In this document: positions 8,299 to 63,300 of the stretch, one piece after another
Numbering within the stretch: the stretch's first letter is position 1
Layout of the letters: every line of letters begins with the position of its first letter
Assembly: GCA_964023285.1 (NCBI GenBank)
Contig: CAXIEN010000093.1
Span: 2,375,739-2,439,738 of the forward strand
Origin: Larinioides sclopetarius
Lineage: Eukaryota
Reading direction: 5' to 3'
Length of the DNA: 64,000 bases
Position numbers and translations under genes: made by a program
The notes under the pieces: model-generated
What the model was told of the DNA's origin: nothing
Database searches by the model: none
Seen by the model: only the letters and a program-made list of their open reading frames with translations

Positions 8299-9660
8299 AC
8301 TTTCTTCTATAAGAAGAAAGGATTGGAATCGTGAAAACTTTCGACCTCCGTTTTTTGATGGATTTACATGTTTTGTGAGGTCCTGAACACGATTCCACAA
8401 TTTTTAAAAATTGTGTGTCTGTCTCTGTGCTGTGTCTAACACAAATTTTGTGGGCGCACTAGTACAAAAACTACTAGACAGAATTTAATGAAATTTCATA
8501 TTTAGTTGTATTTTAACATAACTTGGTGCTGATTAGATTTTGGCGTAGATCACTCAACAGGTGGCACTGCTATTCTGTTTCTTCACGATTTTTTGTATCC
8601 ACTCTACTTCAAAAACTAATAGGAGAAATTCGATGAAATTTTGTATTTAGTTTTGTCTTGACTTAAATTAACGTTCATAAAATTTTTGTGTAGATCGCTT
8701 GACAGGTGGCGCTGATATTTCAATTTTTACTTTCTCGTATAGAGAAAGTATAGTAATCGTCAAAAAATTCGAACTCGAGATTTTGGCGAACCTCCACGTT
8801 TTAGATCTCCTTGAGTCCGAAAAACACAATTTTGGAATTATGTCTGTCTGTGAACACGATAACTCAAAAACTATTATAGCTACGAAGCTGAAATTTGGTA
8901 TGTGGTCTTTTTACATGATTTGTAAGATTCTATCAAATTTTGGGCAACTTCCGCCTGTCTGTCTGTCCGCGTTCATGTGAACTCAATAACTCAAAAACTT
9001 ACATAGCTAGATAGATAAAATTTGATACACAGTTTTCTCATCATAAATGCCTGTCCGTATAAAATTTTGGGCCAAATCCGTCAAAGGGCTGACCGTCAGG
9101 CGGTCTGTATAACCCCATATTTGCAAAATTTATAGCTCTTAAACCCTTTGGTCTACATCTATAAAATTTAGTATGACTTATGCTAATAAAAAGTGTAAAC
9201 GTGTGTAAAGATTTCGCCCCATTCGATTAAGTAGAAGGGGTATAATTCATTAACCAAATTTATAATACGCATGCATGCGGAGAACGTCGTTTTGTGAGCA
9301 AATAAAAGGGTTGCTATTAGGAATTCCTAGGTGGTTTTTTCTTCCGCTTTGGTTCCGTTTTTCTCCCTTTTGGTGAATTCTGATAGCGATTGTGTTATTT
9401 TAATCACGTGAAAATGACGTTTCGCGCATAGAGCAGATTCAAAATTTTTGTCAGGTTTATAGTTCTCACAGTCGGTGGATTTTTTTTATCAACGATGGAG
9501 TATAGGAAACGGAGAATAATTCAGGGGAACTATACGAGAAAGTTTAGGGAAGGCCACTTCCACTGGTTTCATAAATTTTTCAATATTTGTTTTTAGTATA
9601 TATCGGTTTTAATCATATAATTATATAGAAGAAAGTTTTGTGATGGCCACATCATTGTAG
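8299..9660 (+). mobile_element. Family-1 hairpin-initiated repeat, copy a. An 836-bp sister element is nested inside it at 8731..9566.
   Basis: The 5' end is ctactttcttctataagaagaaagga..gaatcgtgaaaactttcgacctccgttttttgatgg. Two internal subrepeats of about 110 bp each end in gatcgct(c/t)aacaggtggcgctg. The element resumes with tttcataaatttttcaatatttgtttttagtatat...tatagaagaaagttttgtgatggccacatcattgtag at 9567..9660. Confidence 0.7.
8731..9566 (+). mobile_element. Family-2, a diverged sister of family-1, nested inside family-1 copy a.
   Basis: It starts with its own hairpin tttctcgtatagagaaagtatagtaatcgtc and a 5' region collinear with family-1 (gaactcgagattttggcgaacctccacgtttt). It ends ctatacgagaaagtttagggaaggccacttccactgg. 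Inside are gtctgtctgtgaac...ctcaaaaact...gaaatttggtatg modules, which also occur at 4735..4935. Confidence 0.5.
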
Positions 9661-22154: not shown

Positions 22155-22310
22155 ATTTATAATCTTTGCATCATGATGGGACTCATGTGTCTGAAAGCTT
22201 GTGAAGATTGCAAAATGAATGTGATTTGCGGCAACTATTCAAACAAATTTGAGCTTGATGAGGATGTTTCCTTTTGTCAGTCAATAAAGGATGCTTGTGC
22301 TCAGTATGAA
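22155..22310 (+). CDS. TROVE gene exon, C-terminal part of the vWA domain (IYNLCIMMGLMCLKACEDCKMNVICGNYSNKFELDEDVSFCQSIKDACAQYE).
   Basis: The acceptor is ttttttctccag and the donor is GAA|GTAAGC. The motif LCIMMGL...MNVICGNY matches the Ro60 motif LIVCGMTSNGF...MLDMCGFD, recalled from memory. The roughly 100-aa vWA core that should lie between the previous exon and this one was not found. Confidence 0.55.
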
Positions 22311-22403: not shown

Positions 22404-22942
22404 TTTACTTTCTTCTTTCCAATACTTTCTTCTATAAGAAGAAAGTATTAGAATCGAGAAAATTTTCGACCTCCGTTTTTTGATGGATTTACATGTTTTG
22501 GGAGGTCCTGAACACGATTCCACTATTTTTAGAAAATGTTTGTCTATGTGCTGTGTGTGAAACAAATTTTGTGGGCATGCTAGCGCAAAAACTATGTGAG
22601 AGAATTTCATGAAATTTTATATTTAGTTGTATTTTAACATAAATTGGTGCTGATTAGATTTTGCTGTAGATCGCTCAACAGGTGGCGCTACTATTCCGTT
22701 TTTTCACGATTTTTTGTATCCACTCTTCAACAAAAACTAATGGGGGAAATTTCATGAAATTTCATATTTAGTTTTGTCTTGACTAAATTAATGTTCTTAA
22801 AATTTTTGTGAAGTTCGCTTGACAGGTGGCGCTGCTATTTCAATTTTTTCATAAATTTTTCAATATTTGTTTTTAGTATATCTTGGTTTTAATCATATAA
22901 TTATATAGAAGAAAGTTTTGTGATGGCCACATCATACTAGTT
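22404..22942 (+). mobile_element. Family-1 repeat, copy b (intact, about 535 bp).
   Basis: Near-identical to the family-1 consensus, from the hairpin tactttcttctataagaagaaagta to the 3' end atatagaagaaagttttgtgatggccacatcatactag. Confidence 0.75.
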
Positions 22943-23253
22943 TTATTTGTTAGTTTAGCCTTGTCTCTAACTCTTTGTTCATATTCCAAGTCTAATATTA
23001 GTCTCATCATTATCTTCATGTATTTGCTATTTTCTTTAAAAAAAATTAAACTAATTTAGTGGCTGAATTTTAAATTTAAAAGGCTAAAATGCACATTTTA
23101 TCGATTTTTATAGAAGATCTTGATATTGTTTTGTAAACCAAGTATTTTTTTAGGTAGATAGTAGTTGATAATAAATTGATTATAAATTATACAGCTCTCT
23201 TACATAGTTTTACATGTTTTTATTTGCTGAATATTCATTCTTTTTTCCTTTAG

Positions 23254-35670: not shown

Positions 35671-37745
35671 TGCTCTTCACCTCACACATTCCGCAAACAT
35701 CAATAAATTACACGCTCGACAGAGACCCTATTGAGAGTTGCTTCTTAGACAATACCGCGAAAGAGCAGAAGCCTGTGAAATACTTAATGACGTAAAGTAA
35801 TTACGTGAAAAAGTTTGCCAGTGGCTTATCACCAAGGAAAACAGGAGCCCCCCCCCACGCAATGCAGTCATAAAAATGCGTAATGCTAGAAGCCGCCGGG
35901 AGCACTTGGCACTGGTAGCGAATACGTAGAAAAAGAGTGGTCAGTGGCTTTTGTAAAATCAATACAGACGTATTGGGGGTCTTCCTTGATGATGCCACCC
36001 TAATCGAAATTAGAGGTAGTGTGAGTGATCTCTCATGATGGGAAATTGACCACTGACGGAACCCCAACATCGCTTTTTTCTGAATTCAAGATTGTTAACA
36101 AATTACCGATAGAAAGATTCTAAGCCCCCCCCTTGCCACGGAGCATCATTGTTGTTCAAGAATAAGGGACTTCGTTCTTCAGTGGCAAGATAAGATAAGA
36201 ACTGCCTCATTATAGTGTGAACAATCCAATATTCATTTAGCGCAGTGCAGTGATAAATCTACAGCGAATATATGATGTTGCAGTCATGTTTCTAGTATCT
36301 TTTCTGACTGAAAAAGTTTCTTTGCCTTAAAAAATAATAAAGGGGACGAAAACAGTCGAACAAAACATTGGAGGGCATTCACTTAATAAAAAAATTGAAA
36401 GCATTATTTAGATTGTAGTTCGTTGATAACTTTTTGGAATGAAAAATGTATCATTTGTAGACAAAACCCTGATCGTTTAGATTCCCTTAGAGTGCAAGTG
36501 GAATTCACGCTACTGCAATGTAGATATAGTTTTACATTTACTTGTATCCAGCTAGAATTTTCCTATAAGTTGCACTATGTATTTGGCCTTGCAATTTTGA
36601 AAGAAAATTTACGCTATGTCTTGCAAATGCACAATAAAAAATTATTTACTGCAAACAATCGTGTTTACTGTAATTTTAATAGTATTAACTTCAAATTTTA
36701 ATATAACACTCCTGTAGCACATTGCCAAGTATTCTGTAAGTCTTGCATTATTTTATAGAAAATTTTGCATGTTATAAAGCAAAAAAAAGCATGTTGGAAA
36801 ATTTCAGAGTTTTTAAGCAAATCTTTTTATCCTTCAGAATATTCCTACTATTTTTTACGAATGTATATGTAAGCAGCGTACTTTTTGATCGAAACCATTG
36901 ATGAAGTTTGTAAATCATAATCAGCTTTCTAGCAGCCCAGATTTTTTTTCTTCATCATTAATTTCTATTCGGTTCTGTAAATGTCATTGTAACAGAATCC
37001 TTTCTGATTGAGAGTTAAAGCCTCTTCTTTATATTGTTACAAAACTTCCGTTTGGTGTGTATATGGTGAAGACAGTCAAGCAAGAAGGTAACAGAGAATA
37101 ACACTTTATTCTCGAAAATTTCCGAAAAAACGAGGCGCAGATAATAAGAAAAAGAGCACTTGCACAGAGAAACAGTATAAGCAGATAGCAAATCACTAAA
37201 AATAACAGAAATAGCAGGGGAAAAAACTGTCAGCGTGAAACGGCTGAAAAACTTGCATTGAACTAGTCAACAAAACACTCATAATGGAGCAACGATTACT
37301 CACAATCGAGTAACATTCAACCTTCGCGATCCAAGCGCTGCTTATATGACTTCTCCAGATAGACTGCGATGTCACGAATTACGTCACATAGATTTTTCAT
37401 GAAATTTCTCTATCTCCCCTTCTAACTGAAAAATCGAGAAAATTCCAGCACATTTGAGATCCTAAAAAAGTACCGTCGCCAAGCTCATATGGTCAATAGG
37501 AACATTATTATAGTATTCCAATACCAACTCCTGTAAAACTTTCTTTCCAACGAAAAGAGTTCCACCGTTGGGAAATTACTTTCAATGTTCGTAACAATAT
37601 GATCGGAATTCTAGGAAAATCCTTTCAGGAGATATTTAAAAAAATGTGAAATTCAAAAGTGTTCATATGATTCTTGGCTCCCTCTTATACTTTTGATTAG
37701 TTATATGTATTATATTTGAAAGCCATTATTTTACGATTTGCATTT

Positions 37746-38287
37746 TTACTTTCTTCTTTCTATAAGAAGAAAGTATTGGAATCGCGAAAATTTTCGACCT
37801 CCGTTTTTTGATAGATCTACACGTTTTGGGGGCTCCTGAACACGATTTCACTATTTTTAGAAAATGTCTGTCTGTCCTTCTGTCTGTCTGTGTGGTGTAT
37901 GTAACCGAAATTTTGTGGGCGCGCTAGCGCAAAAACTACTTGACAGAATTTTATGAAATTTGATATTTAGTTGTATTTTAACATAAATTGGTGCTGATTA
38001 GATTTTGGAGTAGATCGCTCAACAGGTGGCGCTGCTATTCCGCTTTTTTCACGTTTTTACATACCCATTCTACATCAAAAACTATTGGAGAAATTTCATG
38101 AAATTTTATATTTAGTTTTGTCTTGACTTAAATTATTGTTGATAAAATTTTTGTGTAGATCGCTCGACAGGTGGCGCTGCTATTACAACTTTTTCATAAT
38201 TTTTTCAATACTTGTTTTTAGTATATCTCGGCTTCAATCATATAATTATATAGAAGAAAGTTTTGTGATGGGCACATCATACTAGTT
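37746..38287 (+). mobile_element. Family-1 repeat, copy c (intact).
   Basis: Same termini and the same two internal subrepeats as copy b. Confidence 0.75.
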
Positions 38288-40387
38288 TTTCCTAACAAAA
38301 CGTTTTTGAGGAAAGGAGCGATGGACTGATAAGAGTTGACATTGTTCATTCAAGATCGAAAATTTAGAAAAAGTTTTCATGGTAAAATTCGTTATGGTTT
38401 ATAAATATAAGTTGATTAGTTATGACCTTATTCATCCTTTTTAACTAAATAAGTTCTTTTTATTAAATGTAAGTAAAAAAAAGAGTTTATTAAAAACAAT
38501 TTAGACGTTTTTCCTATTTAATATAAAATCTAAATGTTCGGACACTGTTATGTCCAACTCATCGCGATGGGCACAAAAGCCGAAAGAAATAACTATTTTT
38601 TAAATTTTTTATGTTATCAAGTGAGAAATATTTCTGTTTGGACAAAAATGAAAAAGATATAGGGAAGCAAAGGAATTTTGATTTCTTAATCTATTTTATG
38701 TAGAACACATGTAATGTTATTTAATCTGACACTATTACTATCCATAAACTAATATTTTTCAAATCAAATTTTTTTATAATTTTATGGAATTTAACAAAGA
38801 TAAAATATGCTGAATATCCAGGCATACCCCGACAATCATAGTTAAGATTAAATATATTGAATATCCAGGGATACTTATAAATAAAATTTATAATTTAAAT
38901 TGCAGTTCGTCGATATCAGCTTTCTTTGAAACGAGATAGATCAAGACTATTTTCGCTTTTTCTTACCCCTTAATTACCATCATGACCGTATCTTCATTGT
39001 AAAAAGAGAAAAGAAAGTTCCAGGGCAGTCATTTTAGTCTTTCAGGAGAAATTTTAAAAAATGTGAAAATCCGAAGGTTTCCAGTAGGGTTGTTACGCTT
39101 AACATGTTTAAAACACAGCATATAAAACATTGTTTAAAACACCTTTATTATTTTGTAAATATTTCTTCCAACAACAGTAATGTAGCACTACAATACTACA
39201 TTACTGTTTGTTTTTAAAAAATGAAAAAAAAAATTATTCCCCTCCCCCTTTTTTATTAAAAGTATAATTTGACTTTATTTTAAAATATTCATATCCAAAA
39301 ATAACAATCAATTTTCATTGCTATTTTGCTTAATATTTTCTTTCAATAACTTATTTTAATTCTTTTAATAAATAATTTATTTTAATAATTATCTTGATGC
39401 AATTACATGCTGCTGGTTTACGAAAAATGTTTTCTAGTTTCAGCTTTGTACAAAACAAAACTAGAAATCGGTTAGGTGTTGATAAGGCTGAAAGACTTGT
39501 AACTGTTCTTAAATCACTTAATAATGAAATGTGTTTGTATTTTGTATGCAATAAATGGCTAATTATTAATTAAAATTAAGCATTTATTATTTAGATTTTT
39601 TCCTGTTTTTAAAAAAAAATAAAATAAAGAAAGTGTTTTTATTTATTTTCGCGTACTTTAATCGAAATTGTGTTGTTCATGGGAGAGAAAAAAAACCGTT
39701 TAAAAAAAGTTTTTTGTTTTTTACCAACCCTGGTACCAGATACTTTTGATCAGAGGATAAAGCATAGAATTAAAAGCCTTAGTTAAAATATGTTATACTT
39801 TGTATCATCTTCACAGTTTTTTAAAAGGGGGCCTCAAAATAATTGCGCCTTGTGTTTAATCTTTTCAAAACCCGCCACATGCTGATTGTGTAATAAAACT
39901 GAACTGTAATCTCAAAAAAGTAAAAACCGCGAAATGGGAAGAAGGGTGGGAGGAGTCATTCTGAGAAAATCAGGTCCGGAATATACGTTTTGGAATCGGG
40001 AGGGGAGGCGTCACAGCTTAGGGGTTAAGATACTAGCTTCAGATAGGGTTACCTGACGTATGGCTATCTACATTGGTGACTGCTGCTTGATAATATTTTC
40101 ACCCTTATGGCGAGATGTTGGAAAATAAAAGGATTTTTTTTCCTCTTTGACATATGTACGGGTTTTTAATTTTTATCATTTTTCCAAAGCTTAAGTTTGG
40201 GGAGGATCGCTAATATTTGGAAATATACGGTATTTAGAAAGGGAAAAGAGACTGAAACTAAGAGCTCTAGTGAAAGAAATAGATTTCTTAAAACAAAATA
40301 AAATGTTCCTCCAAAATAACACATAAGCCAAAGAAAATGAAGAAGCAAGGGATTGACCTAATGAGGTTGAAAATTCAAAGAACATTG

Positions 40388-41430
40388 ATTTTTACTTTCT
40401 TCTATAAGAAGAAAGTATTGGAATCGCGAAAATATTCGACCTTCGTTTTTTGATGGATTTACACGTTTTTTTTACGGGGGGGGGTTCTGAACACGATTAA
40501 CCCTTTATGAACAACAATTTTTTTACCCAGTGAAAAAATTTTTTCCTTCCAAATCTCAATCAAGGGAGACCATAGGAAGCACACCTACCAATTTTTTAAA
40601 CTTTTTTGAAAAATTGATAAAAATGTACCAAATTCGGTACATTGGGCACACTTGGTGGCAACACTTACAGAACTGCTGACAGATACGAATGGGCCGAAAA
40701 CGTCACAATGGGCTATTGTGGAAAAACTCACTTAGCTACTGAAGCAAAATGATTCTGGAGGTATGTGCCGAATTCGGCACACCTGACGTTAAAGGGTTAA
40801 ACTATTTTTAGAAAATGTCTGTGTGCTGTGTGTAACACAAATATTGTGGCGCGCCAGCGCAAAAACTACTGGACAGAATTTCATGAAATTTCATAGTCAG
40901 TATTTTAATATAAATTGGTGCTGCTTAGATTTTGGCTTGAATCGCTCAACAGGTGGCGCTGCTATTCCGTTTTTTCACGATTTTTTGTATCCACTCTATC
41001 AAAAACTAATGGGAGACATTTCATGAAATTTATATTTAGTTTTGTCTTGACTTTAATCAATGTTCATAACACTTTTGTGCAGATCGCTTAACAGGTGTTC
41101 TGTGATTTCAATTTCAAATTTCTCATTTTTTTTCATAATTTTTTTCAATATTTGTTTTTAGTATATCTCCTTTTCGATGTTTTGAAAGTGCATAAAATGT
41201 AATACAAGAGGTGTACACTATATAAAGTTACTTTGATTCAATATGCATACATGTTAAAAGCATTTCTTTGATAAAACATAGTTTTAACGTCGCTGAAAAT
41301 ATAATAAATTTTATGCAGTTTATTAATGATTTTTGTTTTGAATAAAAATAAGCATTATTAATACGGATTCTAATGCATCTCAATTATATAGAAGAAAGTT
41401 TTGTGATGGTCACATCATACTAGTTTTCAT
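40388..41430 (+). mobile_element. Family-1 repeat, copy d. It is interrupted by the TTAA-MITE (40501..40796) and by a 215-bp insertion of unknown type (about 41171..41385).
   Basis: The family-1 5' hairpin is at 40388. The family-1 sequence is broken at gaacacgatt|...|actatttttagaaaatg and resumes after the MITE. The 3' end aattatatagaagaaagttttgtgatggtcacatcatactag is at 41385..41430. Confidence 0.7.
40501..40796 (+). mobile_element. TTAA-flanked MITE (piggyBac-type), copy 1, nested inside family-1 copy d.
   Basis: TTAA lies on both sides (40497..40500 and 40797..40800). The ends are CCCTTTATGAACAACAATTTTTTTACCC...GTTAAAGGG. Internal palindromes are gtgccgaattcggcac and taccgaattcggta. Confidence 0.65.
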
Positions 41431-49289: not shown

Positions 49290-49757
49290 TCACAAAAGCT
49301 GCAACGGAATAGCAACGCCACCTGTTGAGTGATTTACGACAAACTCTCATTAATCAGCATTAGTTATTGCTAAGGTAAAACTAAATGTAAAATTTCATGA
49401 AGTTCTGCCCAGTAGTTTTTCGTCTAGAGTGGTCACAAAATTTCACAAAAATTGTGGGAGAAACAAAATATAAAAAGCGGAATAGCAACGCCACCTCTCC
49501 AGCTATCTCCATCAAAATCTAATCAGTATTAAGTTATGTTAAGGTGCAAGCAAATATAAAATTTCATGAAATTCCGTCAAGTCCTTTTTGCGCTACCGCG
49601 GCCACAAGTTTTGTGACACTCACAGACATTTTCCAAAAATAGTCAAATAATGTTCAGAACTTCACAAAACGTATAAATCCATAAAAAAAAACGGAAGTCA
49701 AAAATTATCAAGATTTCCCAATATTTTCTTCTCATATATATCTTATAAGAAAGTAAA
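49290..49757 (-). mobile_element. Family-1 repeat, copy f. Reverse orientation, more diverged, and it lacks the canonical 3' tail.
   Basis: The reverse complement shows the hairpin end actttcttataagatatatatgagaag and both subrepeats (caacaggtggcgttgctattccg twice). Confidence 0.55.
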
Positions 49758-49942: not shown

Positions 49943-50384
49943 TTTTGATTTAATCAAATTAATTTTCAATGACTTTTTATGCTACAGCTAAAGTAATTAA
50001 CACCCGAAAGACCATTTTTATTATCCAAGATTTTTATTCCAGTGCTTAGCTAAAACTTTGTTATTTAGCTCAACTTGATCAAAATGTGGGAGTTTTCATG
50101 CAGTTACATATTTTTAAACATTACAAAACCACAGCAAGCTTATATTAAATAACATTGATTTTTATTATTTCCAGTATCTAACCATCCTTCTGAACTTAAA
50201 ATTTTCTGTCATTTTTTGACGAATTTTCGAAATTGATATGAATATCAAGCATTATAAATAAGTTTGTGACTTACATTGGTATAAAATCCCTATATTGTTA
50301 TTTAGGTGCTTGATATTTAAACTTTCAGTGAATTTTCTAATTTGGTTTGTGATAAGCAGTTACTGAGGAGAGAAGATACAATTT

Positions 50385-50708
50385 TTATGCAATAATCACA
50401 ATATTATAAAATAATATGAATGCGGTGCTCAAGAAGAAATGGAGTAATATCCCAAATGATGCTTTTGCAGATGTACCACTTGAGAAGCAATCGAGATCTG
50501 TTTTAAATACTGTTATAATTGATCTATTGTTCATATTAACACATATAGCTTCACGTAAGTCATGTAGATAAGTTTCTTCGCATATCATTTCTTCACACCG
50601 AGTTTCATATTCATATTCTTTTATCCATTCCCATATCCAAGAAAGTTCACAGTTACAATTTAGTTGATTTCCAGTTAGCTTCAAATGCTTGAGGTGCTTT
50701 TCTGGTAC
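50385..50708 (-). CDS. LRR protein gene, terminal exon. Encodes the LRRCT cysteine cap and a C-terminal GPI-signal-like hydrophobic tail, ending at a stop codon.
   Basis: A minus-strand acceptor tttttttttctttttacacag precedes GTACCAGAAAAG. The translation VPEKHLKHLKLTGNQLNCNCELSWIWEWIKEYEYETRCEE...C contains the NxLxCxC...W LRRCT pattern. It then reads FSSGTSAKAS plus SFGILLHFFLSTAFILFYNIVIIA and a stop, which is a small-residue omega region followed by a hydrophobic C-terminus with no cytoplasmic tail. The exon is phase 0, consistent with both candidate exon-2 donors. Confidence 0.65.
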   Translation of the reverse strand, partial: VPEKHLKHLKLTGNQLNCNCELSWIWEWIKEYEYETRCEEMICEETYLHDLREAICVNMNNRSIITVFKTDLDCFSSGTSAKASFGILLHFFLSTAFILFYNIVIIA

Positions 50709-52109
50709 CTGTGTAAAAAGAAAAAAAAATTATGAGTAGTTATAAATTTAGTAAAAACAGAGTATATCAAACTTATTGGAAGTCAACTGGCTTGTTTAAT
50801 GGCATAACATAATAAACGTGTTTAGTATAATAAACGAACAATCTGTCATATGCATGCTGTTTTCATATTTCAGAGATAAATATAACATGGCACATTTATA
50901 ATACTGTTTGGTTCTTGCATGCCTTAAGAATTGTGGAAGCCCTTTCACAACATGGCATCATGGAACTTGATTTTCACCATAATTAAGTTTATGATTAAGA
51001 GAAATCTCTGCTCAACATAAATCATGATAAAGGCTGTCTAGAACACAAAATATCCTATTAAAAGCTGTTAACTCACTAAGAGAAGATTTCCATGATATGA
51101 CTGCAGAAGGTATCGAAAGAACTACTCTTTAAAAAAAGATATTGACTTGTTGAATTTGGTAAAAATTATCTTTAGAATGCTAAGTGTGATTTAAGAGATG
51201 AGAGTTTGGCTGAAAATAAAGTTAAGCACCTAATTATAAAAATGTAAAGAAAGCTATGAATTTATCACAGCTGCTGTGTATTTCTGTATGATAATATACT
51301 ACTTAAAAAAAATTACAAACTATGCAAAAGAACTTCATAGTTTTTTAGTCCTGTTTTCAAAATTTATATACAAAAAAATAATCTGCACATTTGGGCAGGC
51401 AGTTTAAAATAAAATTTTTTAAAACAATAGGTACATAATAAAAGTGCATAATAAACGTAAAATAAGGAAATGCTGCTAAAGATACAAAAGAAAAGATATC
51501 TTGTCTAAAGAAAAATGTTTTTCTTTTAATGATTTTCAATAGTGATGACAAAGATGTCATTATTTTACCATTTTAATACACTTCTAGTTAAAATTTCTTT
51601 GATAAAGATATTTTTCTTCATTATGAAAATAACATGTGTTTAGTTATTGGATCCCCCCATTTTTTGAACTAGCTAATTGTTTGCACAATACAAATTCACA
51701 TAACATGCTATTTTTTACTATCCTCATTATCGTGATTCATGCTTAGTTATAGTTATGTAAATAATTATGTATTAATATTAAAATAAATGTCACCATCAGA
51801 TCATAGATCCTATATTAAGTTGTAAAGATAATTAAAAAATGAATATATCTTCTTGATATAGTTTTGTTTAGATTTCACGGTATAAGGAAGTATAAAATCC
51901 ATTATTACTAAGCTCATTTTTATCCCATACAAAAGAGCTCCTAGTAAGTTTTCTAACTTAATTAGCATGCTATATTTTAATGAATATATGCACGAAGCTT
52001 CAGCTGTTTTCTGAAATAATTTTTTTTCTAATATTAATTCATTGAATCGTTTATCTGTTTATTTATATTTAGAATTTTATTTACATATCGTTTGAAATAA
52101 AAAAATTAA

Positions 52110-53214
52110 GGATGTAACGAATATTCGGCAATTATTCGGTATTCGGCTTTTTGCCAAATATTTGGCTGCCGAATACTAAGCAAATATTTAGCTGAATATT
52201 TTCAAGATGGTAATTTTTTGAAAGTATTAAATAATAAAAACATTTCAGAATTATATATTTCATTTCATTCATTTTTTCTTAAAAAAATCTAGCATTTACT
52301 CAGTTTTAAGTTTACATATATATATAATTGACATATTTTAACATATATTTAAAATTATGAAATATAGTATATAGCACATAAATATATCTAATAATTTTAT
52401 ATGTTTCTTATGACTGTAAAGCCTACAATTATATTAACCAAGAGATATTTTGAGGAGTGCTAAATATATATTCAGTGAAATAAAATCAAGGTATTTTTAA
52501 ATATGTATATTTAACAATGATTATATTGGAGAATTACATTTCAATATATTGATTTACAAAAAAATTCCTAACATTCAGTTTTAAAGGGGAGAGTTAGCAT
52601 TATTAAGTTAAATAACTTTTAGTCCTGTAACTGTAGATGTGGTTTATAAACCATATATATAATAACGTACTCGAAGTTGAAAGGTCAAAGTAAAGGAAAG
52701 ATGTTTGACTGAGTGGTAAATAGAAGTGAAGAAGAATTCGAATATGTTAAAGGAAATGACTTAAAATTTTGACTTGGAGAAAAGCGATTTTTCTATATTT
52801 AAAGGAAAAGGCACGAAGGATGACAAACAAATTTTTATTTTGTTTAGATTAATAATTTTTCTAAAAAAATTTTAAAATCTTAAATATATAATCTAATTAA
52901 TGTATAGGTAAAATTATGCTATTATAATTTATTTAGATTCGGTGAAGTCACATTGTCTTATTCTTATAATTAAAGTGTTTAAAATATATTTAAAAAATAC
53001 ATCAAGGTGCTAATATTTAATAAAACCAATAAAAAAATGAAAAATAACTTTATTAATCATTGATTTTTTATTTAAAATTTCAGGAATATTTCATTTGCCA
53101 TAAAAAAAGGGAAGTGTTTTTAAAAAATAGATATTCGGCCTGGTTTTTGGCCGAATATTCGGTATTCGATTATTCGCGTGCACGCGCGGCCCCAAATCAC
53201 TATTCGTTACATCC
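52110..53214. mobile_element. A 1.1-kb non-autonomous TIR element (TIR GGATGTAACGAATATTCGG), copy 1. It sits in LRR gene intron 2, about 45 bp from the donor.
   Basis: Perfect 14-bp inverted ends ggatgtaacgaata / tattcgttacatcc. Subterminal ccgaatattcgg palindromic motifs are repeated at both ends. There is no transposase ORF. Confidence 0.6.
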
Positions 53215-53258
53215 CTATAAAAAATTATCAAAATATTTGTAGTAAAAATCTACATTAC

Positions 53259-54050
53259 CTCTCTTTCTGTTGTGTATAACTTTTCAAGTGTCTGCAACTT
53301 GTTGTTTATAAATGCTGTCGTAAAATTCTTTACTTCTTTCATATTTTCAAAAACTTTTTGGGGAAATCTAGTGATGTTTGAATTTCGAATATTCAAGTTT
53401 AGAGTATGACTTCGAATGGCAGAAAAAACTGACTCATCCAAATATCTCAAATTATCACCTTCTAAGATGATAGATTTTAATGATTTAGGAAGGTCTCCAT
53501 TGAAAATTCCATCCAGTCCATTTTCTTGAACGTGCAAATGTATTTCATGTATTCCTTGGTTTCCATGAAACATTTGAGATATGTTGGTGCTTCTTCCTGT
53601 GTAAGTATCAAGTTCAATCTTTTTTAATGCTGTTAATTGATGGAAAGTATCTTGATCAATTTCTTGTAATTTTAAATTTTTTATGAACAGTTCCTGCAAT
53701 CTTTCCATGTTCGTAAAACTGTTGTTTGATAGTTTTTGAATTGGATTCTTTTGCAAATATAAGCATTTTAATTGTTGCAAGTTTGACCATATGTTGTTAT
53801 GTGTATTCAACAGTAGATTATTAGATAGATCCAAAATCTGAATTTTCTTCAGTTGTTCCAGCGTTTCTTGTTCCACTGTTTGTATGCCGTTGGAACTCAA
53901 GTTCAACATTAAAATGTTGCACGACGACAGCATTGGGATTATTTTCAAGCTCGTGTTTGCTAAATTGAGTTCCTCAAGGCTATTTGGTAAGTTATTAGCC
54001 ACCCATGCTGGAAGTTCCTTTATTGAATTGTGAGATAGATCCAGAGTCAT
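53259..54050 (-). CDS. LRR protein gene, exon 2 (further LRRs). The donor is ambiguous: GTAATG at 53258, or alternatively GTAAAG at 53333.
   Basis: A minus-strand acceptor ttttttttctcgttttcag lies immediately before ATGACTCTGGAT at 54050, and the frame is phase-compatible with exon 1. The ORF 53250..54050 is entirely LRR (LDLSHNSIKELP..., LDLSNNLLL...). Two candidate phase-0 donors lie near the ORF end. Confidence 0.7.
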
Positions 54051-54878
54051 CTGAAAACGAGAAAAAAAATCAATCTATGGAAATAATTCATAATTTTAAA
54101 AATAAATCTATGAAATCTATGGGAGTGCCTATTTTTGTATTTAGTCAATATTTAATTTTTACTGAAATTGAAGAAAAAGGGAGGGAGTGGCGGAATTCTC
54201 CATTAAGGAAAGAAAACTGACTCTGTCAAGGCAATTTTTACGCAAAGCAAAACTCACGTTTTTCTATCGAAAAACAGCTTACTTTATTTATAAATCTGAA
54301 TTGCACTTAGAAAACAAAAAAACTATTTTTAAATTAACGAGTCTAAATATTTCAAACAATTATAATTTTTTTTATATTAATAGTTTCTGAGTTATTTATT
54401 GCAAGTAATTTAAAGATTAAAAATTGCAATAAAGTCTGAATAAAAAATCATCTTAAATAATTGCTTTAAACTAACTTGGAAATTAAAGAGAGGTTCAGAC
54501 CTGCCAAGATTGTAATACCTCAACTTAATCATTCCATTTTATTGATTGTTAATTTAACAAGCGGTTTTATATTTTAATTTGTTTAAAGAGAGCAAATTAG
54601 TATGTTTTTAATACCGATAGGGTAATTTAGTTTTATTTGAGACAGTATTTTACGATAATCAGAGTTCTTAAAAAATCCTACACTGTGTTATTTTTAAATC
54701 CCGTCCTAATAAACTATATCCAATTCTTAAAGTTTGAATTTGTTCTATAGTTTTCATCCTTTGTTAATTTGATAACTATTTTGCTATGATTCCCTTCTCC
54801 CAAAGGTTCAGTGTTTTTTTTTTCTTCAAGTTTAGATATATTTGTGAGGCTGCTAAAATTGAAATCAACTATACTTAC

Positions 54879-57473
54879 TAGATTTGGTAGTTGCAATTCT
54901 TCCGCTGAGCTAGGTAGAATCAGTCTGTTACGGGAAAGACTCAGGTATCGTAAACTTTGCAGTGATGTAATGCTGCTGAAATTAAGCGATTCTATTTCAT
55001 TTCCAGTTAAATCAAGGTACTGCAATGTATCTTTGATATGGAATATGGAATCTTCAGGGAATTCTTCTAAGTTATTGAATGATAAATCTAGTTGTTCGAT
55101 TGTTGTAGCTTTAAAAATATCTCCTAGTATCTGTTCCATCTCATTGTAAGCCAATGAAAGTATTCTTAATTGCTTTTGTCTCTCAAATAAATTTTCTGGT
55201 AGATTGTTTAAGTTATTTTTTGATAAATCTAATATTTGTATAGATCGTAGACCTTTAAATTCCTCTTCCTCTATTATTTCAATCTCGTTATTTGAAAGGA
55301 TTAGAGTCTGTAGATGAGCCAGATTTGTAAATGCTTGGGTAGTTAAATTTACCAATTTATTATGGCTTAAATCTAGGACTGTAAGTGACAGCCTTATTGG
55401 ATCTAAGTAGTTGGTATCCAAATATGATATATTGTTATAGCTAAAATTGAGATGCTTTATGTTGCTTGAAGTATGAATAACTGTGTAATTTCCTGTTAAA
55501 TTCTGAATGTTGTTATGATCTACATCTATTCTTAAAGTGGACAGTCTTCCTACTTGGTTAAAAGCTTCTAAGTTGAAAGAAGATAGCTCATTATATCCCA
55601 AATTTATTAGTTGAATGTTTGGCAAATTTTGGAATGCTTCATTATCTATAGTTTCAATGGAATTCCCTTCTAGACGAATAATCATTACGGAGTCTAAATC
55701 GAGAAAAGCGGATTTTTGTATGGTCTCAATTAAGTTATCATTCAGTTGCAAATAGATCAGATTTCTCAAATTTCGAAAGATGTGGGATTTTAATACGCTA
55801 ATTTTGTTAAATGCTATTTTCAGATAAGCAAGGTTTGGATTATGCATATCATTTACTATATTCATATCTAGATCCTTCAATTCATTATGATTTAAATTTA
55901 AATACCTTAAATTTTGCGACGACGAAAACGAATTTTGTGGCAAATATTGGATACGATTGCTACTCGCATCTAAATACTCCAACTTTGATAGAGAATTTAA
56001 TGCTTTGTATGGGAATATTGATATCTTTAAAGCATTATGCAAAACAAGTTTTTCTAATGAATGCTTTACATCTCTAAAAGTGGTATTTCCGATTTTTGTT
56101 ATGGCATTGTGGGATAAATCTAACGATTTTAATCCGCTCAATCTGTGAAATGCTCCATTTTCAATAACTTTAATCGAACTTTTTGTCAGGGATAGTTTTT
56201 CCATGGAAGGTCCGACGTTTTGCAAATATTCCGAGTTGATAACTGATGTTTGTTTATTGAATGATAACTCTCTTATGTTTGGTAAATATTTCATGCTTTC
56301 TTGTGACAAGCCGTTCATCTTCGACCCAGAAATATCGAGGTATTTTAAAGGATTTCCGCAGTACTTAATGTCTTCCGGTGTAACTTCCTTTATAGAATTT
56401 CCAGCCAGCGATAATTTAGTTAATTTCGTCAATGGTAAAATAGGGAATTCTTTTATGTTATTATAGCTTAAATCTAAAACTTGTAATGAATGCGTTGAAC
56501 TAAAAAATGCATTTTTTGTTATTTCTGATATTGAACAGTAAGGAATGTAAACTTCAGTTGTATTGGCTGTCAGGAAAGTGTCATTTACTGTTGTAAGTGG
56601 ATTGCCTTTCAGAAAGATACGATTTACTTGATTGAAAAGTCTGAAACTTTCTGCTGTTAATTCTTTTATAAGATTGTGTTCGAGATGCAGCTCATCTAAA
56701 TATATGCGACTTCTTATTTCCCTTCCTTCAGATATAGTAGAAATCAAATTTTCGTTTAAGTTTACGATTTTAATGTTTTTAAAACTAGCCAATGCATTCA
56801 ATGGTATTTGCTGAAGCTGATTACCCATTAGATTTATATGCTTTAAATTATTCAATCCTCCATGAAAAGTTATATCGTCAATTGAAATTATAGAATTGTA
56901 TGCCAGATTCAAAAATTCTAAGGATATCATATTCCGAAATGCGTCACTTTGAACCTGCATTAGAGCGTTTTGAGATAAATCTAGAACCTTTAGACTTGTA
57001 CCCAAATTGCGAAAATCATCTGTGTGTAAGAAAGCAATTTTGTTATCCGCCAAATTTAAATTGCTTAGTTTCTCTAAATTCTGCATTGCTTCTTTTGGTA
57101 TTCGTATTAAGTTATTGTGTCTTAAATCTAGAATAGATAATGTTTTCTCGAGTCCTGCCAAAGCATTGGGTGGTAAATCTGTGAGCAGATTATTGTTAAT
57201 CTGAAGTTTCCAGAGTCCGGTTCCATTTAAACTATTATCCTCTAGAAAACGCAATTTGTTATCTTTAAGACTCATAATGTAAATTGCAGAATTATTGATT
57301 TGAGATGGAACAGTCATTAATGGTATATTATGGCAGCATACAGAACCCAAATCTGGACCTCCATTGGAGCATGTGCATAAAGGGTTGAATGAGCATGGCC
57401 GATGTTGTTCTTTCAATCGGGAATCCACATTTGTGAGGAAAAGTAGGAGACAGAGTTTATCAAAGAATTTCAT
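54879..57473 (-). CDS. LRR protein gene, exon 1 (865 codons). Encodes an N-terminal signal peptide, an LRRNT cysteine cap and a long run of leucine-rich repeats. The architecture is chaoptin-like.
   Basis: The ORF 54714..57473 starts with M and a hydrophobic leader (MKFFDKLCLLLFLTNV). The motif CSFNPLCTCSNGGPDLGSVCC is LRRNT-like. It is followed by about 35 repeats of LxxLxLxxNxI/L. An in-frame GTAAGT donor (plus-strand acttac at about 54873-54878) ends the exon in phase 0 after the codon for L in ...ELQLPNL. The exon length of 2595 nt is a multiple of 3, consistent with the ORF frame. Confidence 0.8.
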
Positions 57474-57544
57474 CTGGAAAAAAAAAGATTATTCAACGTT
57501 CTGGTAAAAATATATGCAACGATATATATAATTTTAAATATAAG

Positions 57545-58013
57545 TATACTTTTTTATTTTCTTCTATAAGAAGAAAGTATTGGAATCGTGAAAATTTTCG
57601 AACTCCGTCTTTTGATGGATTTACGCATTTCGGGGGGCCCTGAATACGAATTCACTATCTTTTGGAAAATGTCTGTGTACTGTGTGTAACACGCATTTTG
57701 TAGGCGCGCTAGCGCAAAAATTTCTGGACAGAATTTTATGAAATTTCATATTTAGTTGTATTTTAGCATAAATTGATTCCGTTTTTTCACGATTTTTTGT
57801 ATTCACTCTACATCAAAAACTAATGGGAGAAATTTCATGTTTAGTTTTGTCTTGACTTAAATTAATGTTCATAAAAGTTTTGTGCAGATCGCTTGACAGG
57901 TGGCGCTGCTATTTAAATTTTTTGAAAATTTTTTCAATATTTGTTTTTAGTATATCTCGGTTTCAATCATATAATTATATAAAAGAAAGTTTTGTGATGG
58001 CCATATCATACTA
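57545..58013 (+). mobile_element. Family-1 repeat, copy e. It lies 70..540 bp upstream of the LRR gene ATG.
   Basis: The 5' hairpin is ttttcttctataagaagaaagtattggaatcgtg. The 3' end is atataattatataaaagaaagttttgtgatggccatatcatactag. Confidence 0.7.
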
Positions 58014-58988
58014 GTCTTTTTAATTAATATTTACGAAATTTACATGTAATATTTTCCTCTAGTTTTCATATATTTTCTTTGTTTGAAAAAAAATATTTTA
58101 AAATTTTGTTGAGCGAATTCGTGGGTAGATTCAAATTATTTTTTGTAAAAAAATTGGAAAAGTTTTATTTAATAATTTGGATAAATTAAGCGTCAAAATT
58201 ATAGTTATTTTTAATGGATAAATTGCAAAAGTGTTCGAGTTGAAAAATATCAATAACTAGCCTTTTCTTGTTGAGAAAAAATTCGATATTTTATGGTTGT
58301 TTATATAGCAGCTGTCATTTCTTGTCTGGAAAATTTGCATATGTATAGATTTTCTGTGATGAAACAATATTAAACTTCATGCAATAAAACGAGTTTTCTC
58401 AAACTTTATTTAATAATTCTCCCTTATATTATATAAATGTGCAAAAAATGTTTTGTTTCATTATTAATATAAATAAATGTAGTTAGTTATAAATTTTTAC
58501 ATGTTTTGATGAAAATTTTTAAATGAAAGCATTTCTCTTTTAAAAGATTATTTTAAGAATCTAGAAAGTAGTATTGGCTTTATATGATCGCGATTATATA
58601 TATATAAAGAAGCCTTCTAATATTGCCATTTTTATACAATTAACTGCCAATGAGAGGTTAGTAAGTTAAAAGCATAAAAAAAGATCGATTGTCTTAATCA
58701 TAATTCGTAATATTGATGAAAATGAAGAAATCTTTTTCAAACAACGTCAAACATTTTGTAAATAATTAAATTATAAAAAAATTATGTTCATATACAATAT
58801 GCGATGCAGAATTTAAGTACAAAGTAACAATATTTTATTTTAAAAATATTTTTTTTTCTGAAATTCATTTTTTTATTTATTTATAAAATAATCATAAGAT
58901 ATATTTTTTATGTTTAATTTTCCGAACTAAATGTATAGACTTAGGCACGATATGTGAGGAATAATAATAATAAACGAATAAGTTCTTG

Positions 58989-60312
58989 GAATGTAACGAA
59001 TCGTGTGATTTGGCCGAATATTTACCTTTTAAAGACATTACACTTTTGATGATAAATAAAATATTTCTCAAATTTTAAACAAAGAAATTAATGTTGAGTA
59101 AAATTAATAAAAAATAATAAAATCAATTTTCTTTCTTTAAAACTCTCTTTATTTACTAGCTCTTTTTTGTTAAAACAATTTAACTCTAAGAATAAGACAA
59201 TATGGCTTTCGATTTCTAAATAAATTATTACAGTATAATTTTATCTACAGATACATAAAATTATATTATTTTAAGATTTTTTTTAGAAAATTTATTGAAA
59301 CTTAAAGAGAATTAAAAACTTACTTGTCATTGTGTGTCTTTTCACGTAACTTAACATATTTCTTTTTTCAAAGTCAGAAAGTTATTTTCTTTAAATTATA
59401 TTAATTCTACTTCACTTCTTACCACTCAATAAAACATTTTTTTCCTTTTCTTTAACGTCAGGTGTGCCGAATTCGGCACATACCTCCAGAATCATTTTGC
59501 TTCAGTAGCTAAGTGAGTTTTTCCACAATAGCCCATTGTGACGTTTTCGGCACATTCGTATCTGCCGGCAGCAGTAAGTGTTGCCACCAAGTGTGCCCAA
59601 TGTACCGAATTCGGTACATTGGTACATTTTTATCAATTTTTCAAAAAAGTTTAAAAAATGGGTAGGTGTGCTTCCTATGGTCTCCCTTGATTGAGATTTG
59701 GAAGGAAAAATTTTTTTCCTTGGGTAAAAAAATTGTTGATCATAAAGGGTTAAGCCTTCAACTACGGGTACTTATCTTGTTACATATGATTTATAAGGCA
59801 CGGCCACCGTCAAGGGGTTAAAATTTAAATTAAATCTGACGATGCTTAATTATTCTCCCCCTTAAAATTGAATAAATATTAAGAAGTTTTTTTGATCATA
59901 AGTGTATTGAGATGTATTTCTGCAATATTCTTTGTTAATATGTGTTTTAAAAATGTTATCATGAATTTATTAGCCAATCATCTGTTTTGCATTCAGTAAG
60001 AGGGCAAGATTGCTTTTGCATTATGATTTCAGGCTTTGCAATCATAAATGACGTGTAAAGTTATTAAATGCATTTACGTACTATATAACTTAGAACTGAA
60101 TAAATAAGATTTTTGAGTAACTTAACAATGAAATATAATTCAGATTTTTTTGTTTTATTATTTAAAAGTATGTTTTTAGAAAGTTATCTCGAAAATATGC
60201 AGCTTAATATCTGCTTAGTATTCTGTCACACAAATATTTGGTAAAGGCCGATTATCGAATATTCGGCGAAAGGGACGAATACCGAATAGTTGCCGAATAT
60301 TCGTTACATTCC
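58989..60312. mobile_element. Copy 2 of the 1.1-kb TIR element (ends ggaatgtaacgaat / attcgttacattcc), carrying the nested TTAA-MITE. It lies in the 5' flank of the LRR gene.
   Basis: Inverted termini and subterminal gccgaatattcg motifs. The length minus the nested 298 bp is about 1026 bp, similar to copy 1. Confidence 0.55.
59456..59749 (-). mobile_element. TTAA-flanked MITE, copy 2, nested inside copy 2 of the 1.1-kb TIR element.
   Basis: It is the reverse complement of copy 1. TTAA is at 59452..59455 and 59750..59753. Relative to copy 1 it lacks 8 terminal bases at one end. Confidence 0.65.
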
Positions 60313-63300
60313 TTATAATTTCACGGTCTGGATGAATTTAAAGGCTAAATTAATCCGAATAATCAATGTTTAATGTAGGTTGACGAATAATAGATTGGAC
60401 GTATAAATCACGTTATTTAATGACAGGTGCTAAAACTTTCGTACTAATTTTGATTCTATATGATTATTATATTTCCTATAAACTCTTATAATTAGTGCTC
60501 ATAAACTATATTGATCATTTTTTAAAAAAAATTATTGAGAAAAATGAAGGAAATTGTTAGAAAAAAATGAGTGACTCTTTAATTTGATTAAAAAATTTGG
60601 AAAAATGTATACAAATATATTACTTTCAAGGAGTTGTTTTTAAAATTTCATTGATATCCCCCTGCTTTTAAAGGAATAATTATTAAAAACTTATAATTTT
60701 GCTATAATAACTTTCACTAGCTGTTTAAAAATTTGAGACTTTTTGTAAATTTTTCAGATATTTAAATGAAAAATTAAATTGAAATTTCGTGAACTCTTTG
60801 AAAGAGAAAATACTGTGCAATCTTGATTACTGAGAAATGTTATATTAACAGTTTTTAAAAACTCGAAAGATTGTGTGTAATTATATTTATTGTAAAAACG
60901 GCATTTATTGTACGTTTTCCAGTTAGATCTATGCTATGGAATTATTTTGTATATTTTAATTTTAGCACCAATTATATTTCTAATTATAAAATTACTCGGA
61001 AAAGTTGTTACATTCTAAATAAAAATGTTTAAATTTTAAAAGATTATTGAGCCAGGAAAATCATTTGAAAAATATTTCGCTTTTTGCGTGATGTAAGAAA
61101 ATCTAATCTTTCTTATCTAAAAGTTCCTGAAATACTTCGCTATTGGCGGAAATAAATTAAAAACAAATAGTTATTATTAAATATATTTTAATTAAATTAT
61201 TTATTTATTGTCATTAAATGTATATTATTGGAATGAATTATAAATTATTCATATATATATATATTAAAGGGAAAATGAATTGTTATTAAATATAACTTAT
61301 TAAGAAAGCACTAATATAATACACATCAAAATCATGATCAGTAAACTATTATAAAATTGAAATTATGCTGTTAAATATTTTTATTATTTAATTCTGGTCT
61401 GAGATTATATTATCTGCAATAAAAAAAGATATTTTAGTTATTTTTTACTTAATTACATATTAGATTTAATATTATAAGACAGGGGATTTAAAGAGTGTCT
61501 ATCAATTTAGTTTCGTACAAGAAAAAAAGTTTAATTTTTGAACTTTTCTTCAGTTACATGAAAACTAGAATTCTATTAAAAAAAAACCAGGTTGCAATGA
61601 TAGTTAAAATAAAATGATAAATTGTATTTCTTATTAGAATTTATGAATATCCAGTAACTATATCTATTAAAAACACCTTACCGTCTGTTTCTTAAGTAGC
61701 ATCAAAATCAAAATTAAGGAAAAAAGAAATTGAACTTACGTTGTAAAATTCCAAGTTACGTTTTCCTATTAATCCTATATTTCTGTTACTACTTGTTTTA
61801 ACTTTTGAAGTGTCGATTACGAAACGAATCTTCTTCACACCATTTTGTAGTTACCACTTGCACGAAATGAAGATTTCTTAATAGATTTACCAGTGATTTC
61901 ATGCAGGTGTTATTCATTCATGCTTACGTTAGCATTTCTTTAAGCTTTTAAAACTGTGGTGCTTCTCATTCGTTCTTGTATAGGCCTAGGGAATACTTAG
62001 AAGTTCCCTGTTTTTCATGTTCCATTCGCAGCACATAATTGGGGGGAGGGGGAGATCGCCTATCTGCGTCTTAGCTTTCGAAAAGTTTGCGGACTTCTAT
62101 GACGCGTTACAATGAGCTCGATATCTTATTTGTAAAAAGGCAATCACGGGCTTCTTCACCAAGAGGAAAGAAATGAATTCATTACCCTTTATTATTTTGC
62201 TGTGTGATTTTTTTAATGGAGTAAATATCCCTTGTATTGTAATTTTTTAATATGGAGCAGAGCCTAAAGGTTTATTTCGTGGTGAAAACCGTTCTTTGTT
62301 TAAGTTCGAATGCCTAACTGCATCATCCTTTCCAGGACTGATTTTTGGGGACACAGCAAAAAAAATACATGTCGCGAAATCATATCTGGCTGTCTGTTTG
62401 GAAATGACAACATATTGTATCAAATTAAATTGTCGATGTATGGTTTTAATCCTTTCAGGCTGAAATATTATTTGTTTGTCAAAAAATACTTTATATTTAA
62501 AATTTTTCATTAATTAAAGATTAATTATTTTCTGTTTTAAAATTATTCATTCATTACTTTGTATCCAACTCAGGTTTCTATATCAATCTCGAGTCCAAAA
62601 CGAGCTCAAATTAAAAACAGATTTGTGTAGAAAAGCACCTTACTCCGGTGAAATTAATGAAAGGAAATATAAATGCTTAAGGCAAAAGGAGGTTGGATGT
62701 GTGAAGCATTTATGTAATAAACATTTTCATTTCATCCTCTTTATGTAAGTAGGTTTATTAGGCAAAATTAATTCTTACTTTGTCCCAAATATATATGAAG
62801 TGTTTGTTTCGGGGATTGTGGCCCGTTGTGACCATGGGCTCCGTCTAACCCTTCCCATCATCAGTGGGCAACAAGTTTTATTACTTCTAAACTTTGAAAT
62901 ACTTCTGCAACTGCCGGAATTTTAATATTCGACGTCAAACACACTTTAGATAAGTTAGTATCAGCTTATTTTAAAGTTTAAAAGATATTTATTTCTCACT
63001 AAGACATATTTTGCTTATTTAGTTATACTCGCTTTATTAGAAGCTATAACTTTTTTTACACAGGTACGACTTTTTTAAATAATATATTTAAATCAGTCTA
63101 GTTTCACTGAAAATTTAACAGTTTACTACATGTATAGTATAAAGTATTATAGGTGATATGCTAATCTATCTGAGTTTTTTTGTTCAGCAAATCTTCGTCA
63201 TTCAGTCTTATTTATAATTAGTGTGTCCCTTTCTTTTAATTGCTTCATCGAAAGAGAGTCAGGATCTCGGCATGCTTCCGTTTAGAGTTTGAATTTTAAA

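Follow-up and report, generated by a model that had tools for sequence, protein, structure and literature searches.

A well-supported chaoptin orthologue of the spider Larinioides sclopetarius: three coding exons, a GPI-type terminus and a conserved upstream block

The textbook photoreceptor adhesion protein chaoptin, encoded by chp in Drosophila, is photoreceptor-specific and mediates the homophilic adhesion of microvilli (PMC2672165, PMC4021355); PMC4021355 credits the adhesion result to Krantz and Zipursky 1990. The fly protein has been shown experimentally to be linked to glycosylphosphatidylinositol (GPI), again by Krantz and Zipursky 1990 according to PMC4021355 and PMC2672165. About 38 leucine-rich repeats (LRRs) make up ~90% of its chain (PMC2672165), with published LRR counts ranging from 28 to 38 according to the method used (PMC4021355, PMC2672165) and a figure of 38-41 also on record, and 13 of its 16 N-glycosylation sequons are occupied (PMC2672165). 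Visual-system expression of chp homologues persists in insects whose rhabdoms are fused (PMC4021355). A 2026 study lists chp as one of the genes under positive selection in non-diurnal spiders, and its grouping of spider chp with visual-system genes is by annotation only. Here we describe a locus in 64,000 nucleotides of the spider Larinioides sclopetarius (contig CAXIEN010000093.1 of assembly GCA_964023285.1, positions 2,375,739 to 2,439,738; hereafter, the window). This locus is very probably the spider orthologue of chaoptin, encoding a GPI-type LRR precursor in one non-coding and three coding exons.

An initial annotation of the window had proposed that three exons splice into a gene for a chaoptin-like protein of about 1236 aa, and both the exons and the length of the product stand. 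The gene lies on the minus strand. Its junctions, read directly, are all in phase 0, and its parts are as follows (a slash marks an exon boundary).

54879..57473, minus strand: coding exon 1, 2595 nt, 865 codons, donor CTA/GTAAGT, inside a 919-aa open reading frame (ORF) at 57473-54714; encodes the putative signal peptide (aa 1-18), then the putative cap cysteines CX5CXCX10CC (aa 27-47), then 33 LRRs
54051..54878, minus strand: intron 1, 828 nt, GTAAGT...TTTTCAG, phase 0
53259..54050, minus strand: coding exon 2, 792 nt, 264 codons, LRRs; acceptor TTTTTTTTCTCGTTTTCAG/ATG, donor GAG/GTAATG with its GT at 53258-53257
50709..53258, minus strand: intron 2, 2550 nt, phase 0
50385..50708, minus strand: coding exon 3, 324 nt, 107 codons plus TAA (50387-50385), acceptor TTTTTTTTTCTTTTTACACAG/GTA; encodes the last LRR, a putative cysteine cap, NQLNCNCELSWIWEW...C (aa 1143-1203, 50669-50487), at the C-terminal side of the repeats, and the putative GPI signal (aa 1205-1236, 50483-50388)
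50161..50384, minus strand: probable 3' untranslated region (UTR) up to the first AATAAA (50166-50161), a consensus match only; its length is near the ~180 nt of the spider RNA contig L003 introduced below

When spliced, the exons give an ORF of 1236 aa whose sole stop codon is terminal. ORFs of 266 aa (54050-53250, minus strand) and 99 aa (50684-50385, minus strand) lie at exons 2 and 3; like the 919-aa ORF, they consist of LRR-like sequence. From the base composition of the window, stop codons are expected at a frequency of 0.081 per codon, or about one every 12 codons, and a run of 865 codons would remain open by chance with a probability of ~10^-32. The three-exon structure is real and lies far beyond chance.

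No entry in the protein collection is identical to the product of the exon 1 ORF, and the gene model relies on homologues for its RNA support, as might be the case if the locus were a pseudogene or an assembly chimera whose pieces happen to splice in frame. The three exons are intact, with canonical splice sites and neither a frameshift nor an internal stop, and the chaoptin gene of Nephila pilipes (L002) contains the same three coding exons with identical exon lengths, introns at the same codons and a coding sequence of 3711 nt. Its splice motifs match as well (AG/GTAAGT and GAG/GTAATA). At the DNA level, the window resembles the Nephila locus only in the three coding exons, which are 73-78% identical (78% for exon 1), and in one upstream block. 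The codon-wise comparison of the two genes is free of gaps, with proportions of nonsynonymous and synonymous differences (pN and pS) of 0.108 and 0.71, the latter saturated, and a ratio of the corresponding rates (dN/dS) of ~0.05; all three exons behave as coding. Purifying selection of this strength excludes a pseudogene, and fortuitous splicing of unrelated pieces is practically refuted, with a probability that we consider negligible.

Transcript support for the model comes from a related spider rather than from the source species. The Logan RNA contig L003 (4021 nt, run SRR7472191) contains an uninterrupted ORF of 1233 aa with 63% identity to the model, which aligns to residues 1-1223 in a single high-scoring segment pair covering both junctions. 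We therefore read L003 as the spliced mRNA of a spider orthologue. Its sequence continues through the hydrophobic C-terminus and the stop codon into a 3'UTR, which contains a poly(A) signal. A literature search found no tissue for this run. In Stegodyphus dumicola, the RefSeq model (L001) likewise comprises three coding exons, interrupted at the same codons.

The end of exon 2 had been left ambiguous between two donors, GAG/GTAATG at 53258 (last exon base 53259) and GAA/GTAAAG at 53333 (last exon base 53334, exon of 717 nt). The resulting long and short models, of 1236 aa and 1211 aa, each have a single terminal stop. We aligned the long model with its four closest chelicerate homologues and one ant chaoptin. 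Both junctions are gap-free in this alignment, and the disputed 25 residues, VKNFTTAFINNKLQTLEKLYTTERE, pair without gaps with VRNFTVEFINNKLQTLEKLYAVGKE in Nephila and with equivalent segments in all other homologues. The corresponding codons are also present in L003, and in comparison with Nephila they show a pN of 0.15 and a pS of 0.52. Since these 25 codons are kept in all homologues and in the spider mRNA, GTAATG at 53258 is the true donor, which settles the ambiguity; the short exon 2 was rejected because it loses residues that every one of these sequences retains. The suggestion that further micro-exons might reside in intron 2 did not hold. The homologues leave no gap to be filled at either junction, so that no micro-exon is missing, and the intron sequence aligns with neither the Nephila nor the Stegodyphus locus.

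The best protein match of the 1236-aa product (the query) is the Nephila pilipes chaoptin, with 80% identity over 100% of the length. Chaoptin-like proteins of Stegodyphus and Centruroides share 63% and 40% identity with it, and dozens of insect chaoptins are ~34% identical over 97-99% of the length (E ~1e-190). A family search by BLASTP and profile, proposed alongside the initial annotation, thus yields chaoptins for all top matches, while Pfam recognizes LRR families only (LRR_8, E = 3.9e-127). However, LRR proteins cross-match strongly, and a sequence search of the PDB returned generic LRR proteins only, with IGFALS, TLR13, LGR5 and TLR3 closest and no solved chaoptin. The name chaoptin is, moreover, applied loosely to three clades. 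Both points would be compatible with membership in another long-LRR family, either the 'chaoptin-like' proteins of clade B (Larinioides, Parasteatoda, Ixodes, Limulus, Lepidoptera and Hemiptera), artichoke or Toll/TLR.

Orthology was examined with an all-against-all comparison of 43 proteins and a neighbour-joining tree with 100 bootstraps, to be read as a distance-based tree for a protein built of repeats. With each insect chaoptin as query, the group of scorpion and spider proteins to which the product from the window belongs comes next after the insects (~545-655 bits), clearly ahead of a second chelicerate group (~325-410 bits). The protein from the window scores 611-654 bits against insect chaoptins; its scores with clade B are 387-398 bits, and those with artichoke are lower. 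The tree separates these clades. Bootstrap support for the chaoptin clade is 95%, and the spiders plus scorpion are grouped with 100%. Within the chaoptin clade, a pancrustacean branch (insects and a copepod) stands beside a chelicerate branch (mites, scorpion and spiders), which is the pattern expected of orthologues and supports orthology. Another family is therefore already largely refuted as the source of this gene and highly improbable; the query also lacks the membrane segment and tail of artichoke and the TIR domain of Toll/TLR, as described below. Clade B is sister to the chaoptin clade, and the artichoke clade is distant. Since clade B has chelicerate and pancrustacean members of its own, the duplication that gave rise to the two would predate the arthropod radiation, providing evidence that chaoptin proper and the 'chaoptin-like' clade separated before the chelicerate-pancrustacean split.

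To connect the query with Drosophila, a D. melanogaster chaoptin sequence was used as a search lead only. The lead matched a Drosophila chaoptin cluster (P0121) at 97% identity; the representative of this cluster is from D. elegans, and its 15 listed members include D. yakuba, D. suzukii and D. virilis, D. melanogaster not being among them. In the same search, insect members of the chaoptin clade were 48-51% identical to Drosophila chaoptin. P0121 aligns to query residues 20-1214 with 31% identity and 571 bits. Reciprocal BLAST, the 95% clade and the C-terminal pattern agree with the chaoptin assignment made at the outset, and orthology to chaoptin is well supported by these comparisons. The accompanying description of chaoptin as a protein known from insects is correct as to identity; a restriction to insects is not, as this kind of gene is already known and annotated in several spiders, scorpions and mites.

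In public records, the three clades that go by the name chaoptin are true chaoptin, the sister 'chaoptin-like' clade (e.g. Parasteatoda, Larinioides, Danaus and Halyomorpha) and artichoke orthologues (e.g. Eurosta, Pieris, Anopheles nili and Hermetia X1). Members of the second of these clades, from spider, tick and Limulus among others, are 26-28% identical to the query. Care is needed in comparative eye studies, where database names mix the three.

The architecture of the protein is that of an extracellular LRR solenoid between two putative cysteine caps, and the Pfam scan found no TIR or other intracellular domain in it. The N-terminus reads MKFFDK, LCLLLFL, TNVDS/RLKE, with V at -3 and S at -1 of a heuristically placed cleavage site. 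In an AlphaFold2 model, residues 2-21 form a detached N-terminal helix, with a predicted local distance difference test score (pLDDT) below 50 at residues 11-22, and the aligned orthologues all have a comparable hydrophobic N-terminus. The signal peptide first claimed for this protein is plausible on these grounds, if short. The cysteines of the putative N-terminal cap, C27, C33, C35 and C46/C47, are nearly invariant among 30 chaoptins, and the C, C, W, W, C and C of exon 3 are invariant or nearly so. Pfam LRRNT and LRRCT gave no match to the isolated termini.

The AlphaFold2 model of exon 1, computed from a 30-sequence alignment (pLDDT 88, predicted template modelling score 0.76), forms a regular solenoid, in which 33 repeat strands follow one another at intervals of ~24 residues between residues 64 and 845. 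Its best Foldseek matches are the ectodomains of TLR13, TLR3, TLR8, TLR9 and TOL-1. The number of repeats depends on how they are counted. A strict LxxLxLxxN pattern finds 31, a profile built from those finds 35-39, and the 24-residue periodicity over residues 64-1158 corresponds to ~45, some 12 beyond the 33 of exon 1. The last figure agrees with the ~45 LRRs originally estimated.

Windows of 19 residues with a mean Kyte-Doolittle hydropathy (KD) above 1.6 occur only within residues 1210-1236. The order of elements is ...DLDC-FSSG-TSAKAS-FGILLHFFLSTAFILFYNIVIIA, in which a 6-residue spacer leads to a 23-residue hydrophobic tail that is also the end of the protein. Because small residues are followed by a short spacer and a terminal hydrophobic tail, this is the layout of a GPI attachment signal, and the attachment site likely falls within S1205-G1207. 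Only two residues follow the best 19-residue hydrophobic window. We tabulated C-terminal hydropathy for 44 proteins. In nearly all proteins of the chaoptin clade, including that of Drosophila, 0-3 residues follow the hydrophobic stretch at the end. Two proteins depart from this: that of Stegodyphus, in which another window is more hydrophobic than the terminal stretch, and a Dinothrombium model that is probably truncated. All artichoke proteins, in contrast, have a helix with a KD of 3.3-3.5 and then a further 62-137 residues. The query has no artichoke-type cytoplasmic tail ending in ...DDKAYR, nor the combination of a transmembrane helix and a TIR domain that typifies Toll/TLR.

As the GPI reading draws on sequence rules, and gene models sometimes miss 3'-terminal exons, the stretch might instead be a type I transmembrane anchor with essentially no tail, or be continued by a further exon for a cytoplasmic domain. 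Both are very unlikely. The near absence of residues after the stretch is common to nearly all of the chaoptin clade, in which the fly member is GPI-linked; SSG, the 6-residue spacer and the 23-residue tail fit a GPI signal; and in the mRNA of the related spider the same tail is followed by a stop codon and by a 3'UTR containing a poly(A) signal, with no downstream exon for a cytoplasmic domain, the outcome that would have spoken against the initial annotation. The terminus is of the GPI type, as had been proposed, and the spider protein would by these rules and by orthology to Drosophila chaoptin be GPI-anchored.

Beyond the coding region, one further segment of the locus is conserved. It was missed in the initial annotation, which overlooked the acceptor before the start codon and a non-coding 5' exon ~4.3 kb upstream. 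The corresponding features are as follows.

61740..62006, minus strand: conserved non-coding block, putative core promoter and non-coding 5' exon ('exon 0')
~61892-61740, minus strand: exon 0, predicted; donor AAC/GTAAGT with its GT at 61739-61738
57474..61739, minus strand: intron 0, predicted, ~4.27 kb; acceptor TTTTTTTTTCCAG directly before the start codon

Positions 62006-61797 are 82% identical over 215 nt to Nephila L002 2897-3109. This exceeds the identity of the coding exons, although synonymous sites are saturated between the two species. The block runs on to a GTAAGT donor that is common to both, and the 139-nt 5'UTR of L003 aligns to its 3' half, from ~61892. The upstream exon contains no ATG in a frame continuous with the main ATG, and there are stops in that frame. 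We infer from the conserved donor and acceptor, the alignment of the mRNA 5'UTR and the lack of an in-frame ATG that exon 0 is non-coding and is followed by intron 0; the ends of both are predictions of this kind. The part of the block upstream of exon 0 is predicted to be the core promoter. The Nephila model GFS98073.1 has a 19-aa N-terminal extension, ahead of the signal peptide, that is taken from the upstream exon (L002 3001-3057). A similar coding extension was considered for the window and rejected, given the stops and the missing in-frame ATG. The extension is probably an annotation artefact in Nephila, since the model of Trichonephila clavata is 1236 aa long.

The sole upstream ATG of the predicted exon 0 opens a two-codon upstream ORF (uORF), ATGGTGTGA (61843-61835, minus strand; ATG-GTG-TGA). 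It is identical in Nephila, and the mRNA of the third spider has ATGTGA at the aligned place. The uORF may be a conserved translational control element of the start-stop type. It is conceivable, though we hold the idea only tentatively, that the block is a compact promoter and 5' leader for photoreceptor-specific expression of chaoptin, with the uORF perhaps tuning translation. Were this true, the block could be used as an eye-specific driver in spider transgenesis and would offer an entry to the regulatory code of chelicerate photoreceptors. No verifiable photoreceptor transcription-factor site was found in the conserved block. The exact RCSI site (TAATNNNATTA) is absent from it, and its GGATTA is not kept in Nephila. 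An octamer, GAAGCACC (61965-61958, minus strand), is kept in Nephila (L002 2938) and is rare in the window, at 2 per 128 kb with both strands counted. This octamer may resemble the GAAGCC core of Glass/CHE-1. The block is a candidate regulatory element.

By analogy with the fly, the course of the spider protein can be outlined. The 1236-aa precursor would enter the endoplasmic reticulum, where the signal peptide would be removed and the chain heavily N-glycosylated, and the C-terminal signal would be exchanged for a GPI lipid anchor. In the mature protein, the LRR solenoid would then be held at the outer leaflet of the microvillar (rhabdomere) membranes of photoreceptors, and homophilic LRR-LRR binding would zip together neighbouring microvilli and adjoining rhabdomeres, as described for the fly (PMC4021355). 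GPI anchoring, expression in the eye and adhesive function in the spider are expected by this analogy.

A true orthologue could also act mainly outside the eye, in other microvillar or sensory cells, or in a role other than rhabdomere adhesion. In favour of such a shift, the single-lens eyes of spiders have a rhabdom arrangement unlike that of fly ommatidia. Strong purifying selection and a full-length architecture kept from flies to spiders argue for a retained role, as do the chp homologues in the visual system of insects with fused rhabdoms (PMC4021355) and, by annotation only, the placement of spider chp with visual-system genes in the 2026 study. We regard a shifted role as unlikely, if less so than the alternatives considered above, and favour a chaoptin orthologue that would serve photoreceptor adhesion. 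Several points weigh against this interpretation. Identity to Drosophila chaoptin is just 31%, the hydrophobic core of the signal peptide (LCLLLFL) is short, the junctions are supported by homologues only, and a literature search found nothing on chaoptin expression or function in any spider or other chelicerate.

The present work provides a verified gene model for the locus, in which the exon 2 donor is settled, the start codon is fixed and no micro-exons are hidden. New features are the conserved non-coding 5' exon/promoter block and an element with terminal inverted repeats in intron 2. Beyond annotation, the significance is small.

The presence of a transposon in intron 2 had been noted before, and the element can now be delimited.

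52107..53217, no strand assigned: non-autonomous DNA-transposon-like element of ~1.1 kb inside intron 2, with terminal inverted repeats TA(A/G)GGATGTAACGAATA

Its terminal inverted repeats (52107-52123 and 53201-53217) are 17 nt long and 94% complementary. The 8-bp flanks AAAAAAAT and TAAAAAAT are near-identical and may be a target-site duplication. No long ORF for a transposase is present in the element. A second, diverged copy lies in opposite orientation in intron 0 (~59012-60315, as 59012-59456 and 60087-60315), with 70-73% identity.

Intron 0 also contains an interspersed repeat of ~470 bp at 57551-58021, ~80 nt upstream of the acceptor that adjoins the start codon. At least five further copies, with 72-79% identity within the family, are present at 8298-8728, 22423-22947, 37743-38290, 40801-41178 and 49528-49736. 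A separate repeat pair, 59450-59753 and 40497-40794, is 94% identical. The window has ~29% G+C throughout. It contains no protein-like ORF of at least 130 aa outside the chaoptin gene, and an Rfam scan of the whole window returned nothing at gathering thresholds.

An exon-like ORF at 22155-22310 (plus strand) follows TTTTTTCTCCAG and shares 40% identity with Stegodyphus L001 15339-15527 over 53 aa (E = 1e-9). The matched Stegodyphus ORF adjoins the chaoptin-like gene, inside the region spanned by an antisense gene for a 2010-aa TROVE/WD40 (TEP1-like) protein. Pfam gave no match for the peptide of 22155-22310, and this is the single homologous exon-like ORF found in the window. The similarity suggests that the antisense neighbour is conserved and that chaoptin possibly sits in an intron of this neighbour as in Stegodyphus, the nesting being unproven.

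Among known systems, artichoke and Toll/TLR resemble the query in their long extracellular LRR solenoid, but differ in having a transmembrane helix with a cytoplasmic tail or a TIR domain, neither of which is found in the query. Clade B (Parasteatoda P0082, Larinioides P0066, Ixodes P0067 and Danaus P0074) has a similar length and shares the all-LRR build and the hydrophobic C-terminus; it differs in its 26-28% identity to the query and in forming a clade of its own. Drosophila chaoptin (SwissProt P12024, according to PMC2672165) is colinear with the query in its signal peptide, putative cysteine cap and an LRR solenoid comprising ~90% of the chain. The residue pattern CxC...W..W...C...C of the putative C-terminal cap and a hydrophobic C-terminus without a tail are also common to both, and the query has 18 N-x-S/T sequons compared with 16 in the fly. 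The fly protein differs in its low identity, in being ~80 residues longer and in insertions within and before the C-terminal cap, and it is the only one for which GPI anchoring, photoreceptor specificity and homophilic adhesion have been demonstrated. Among chelicerates, the Centruroides chaoptin-like protein (P0007) matches the query over its full length. The same is true of the Stegodyphus dumicola protein (P0002), whose gene shares the three coding exons and intron positions; that gene, however, lies antisense inside the TROVE/WD40 gene, whereas the window shows one exon-like ORF of this neighbour. The closest relatives are the nephilid chaoptins. Nephila pilipes GFS98073.1 differs from the query in its saturated synonymous sites and in the 19-aa extension of its model, but it matches the query over the full length and has the same exons, introns, coding-sequence length and upstream block, and Trichonephila clavata GFQ89702.1 has exactly the 1236 aa of the Larinioides protein.

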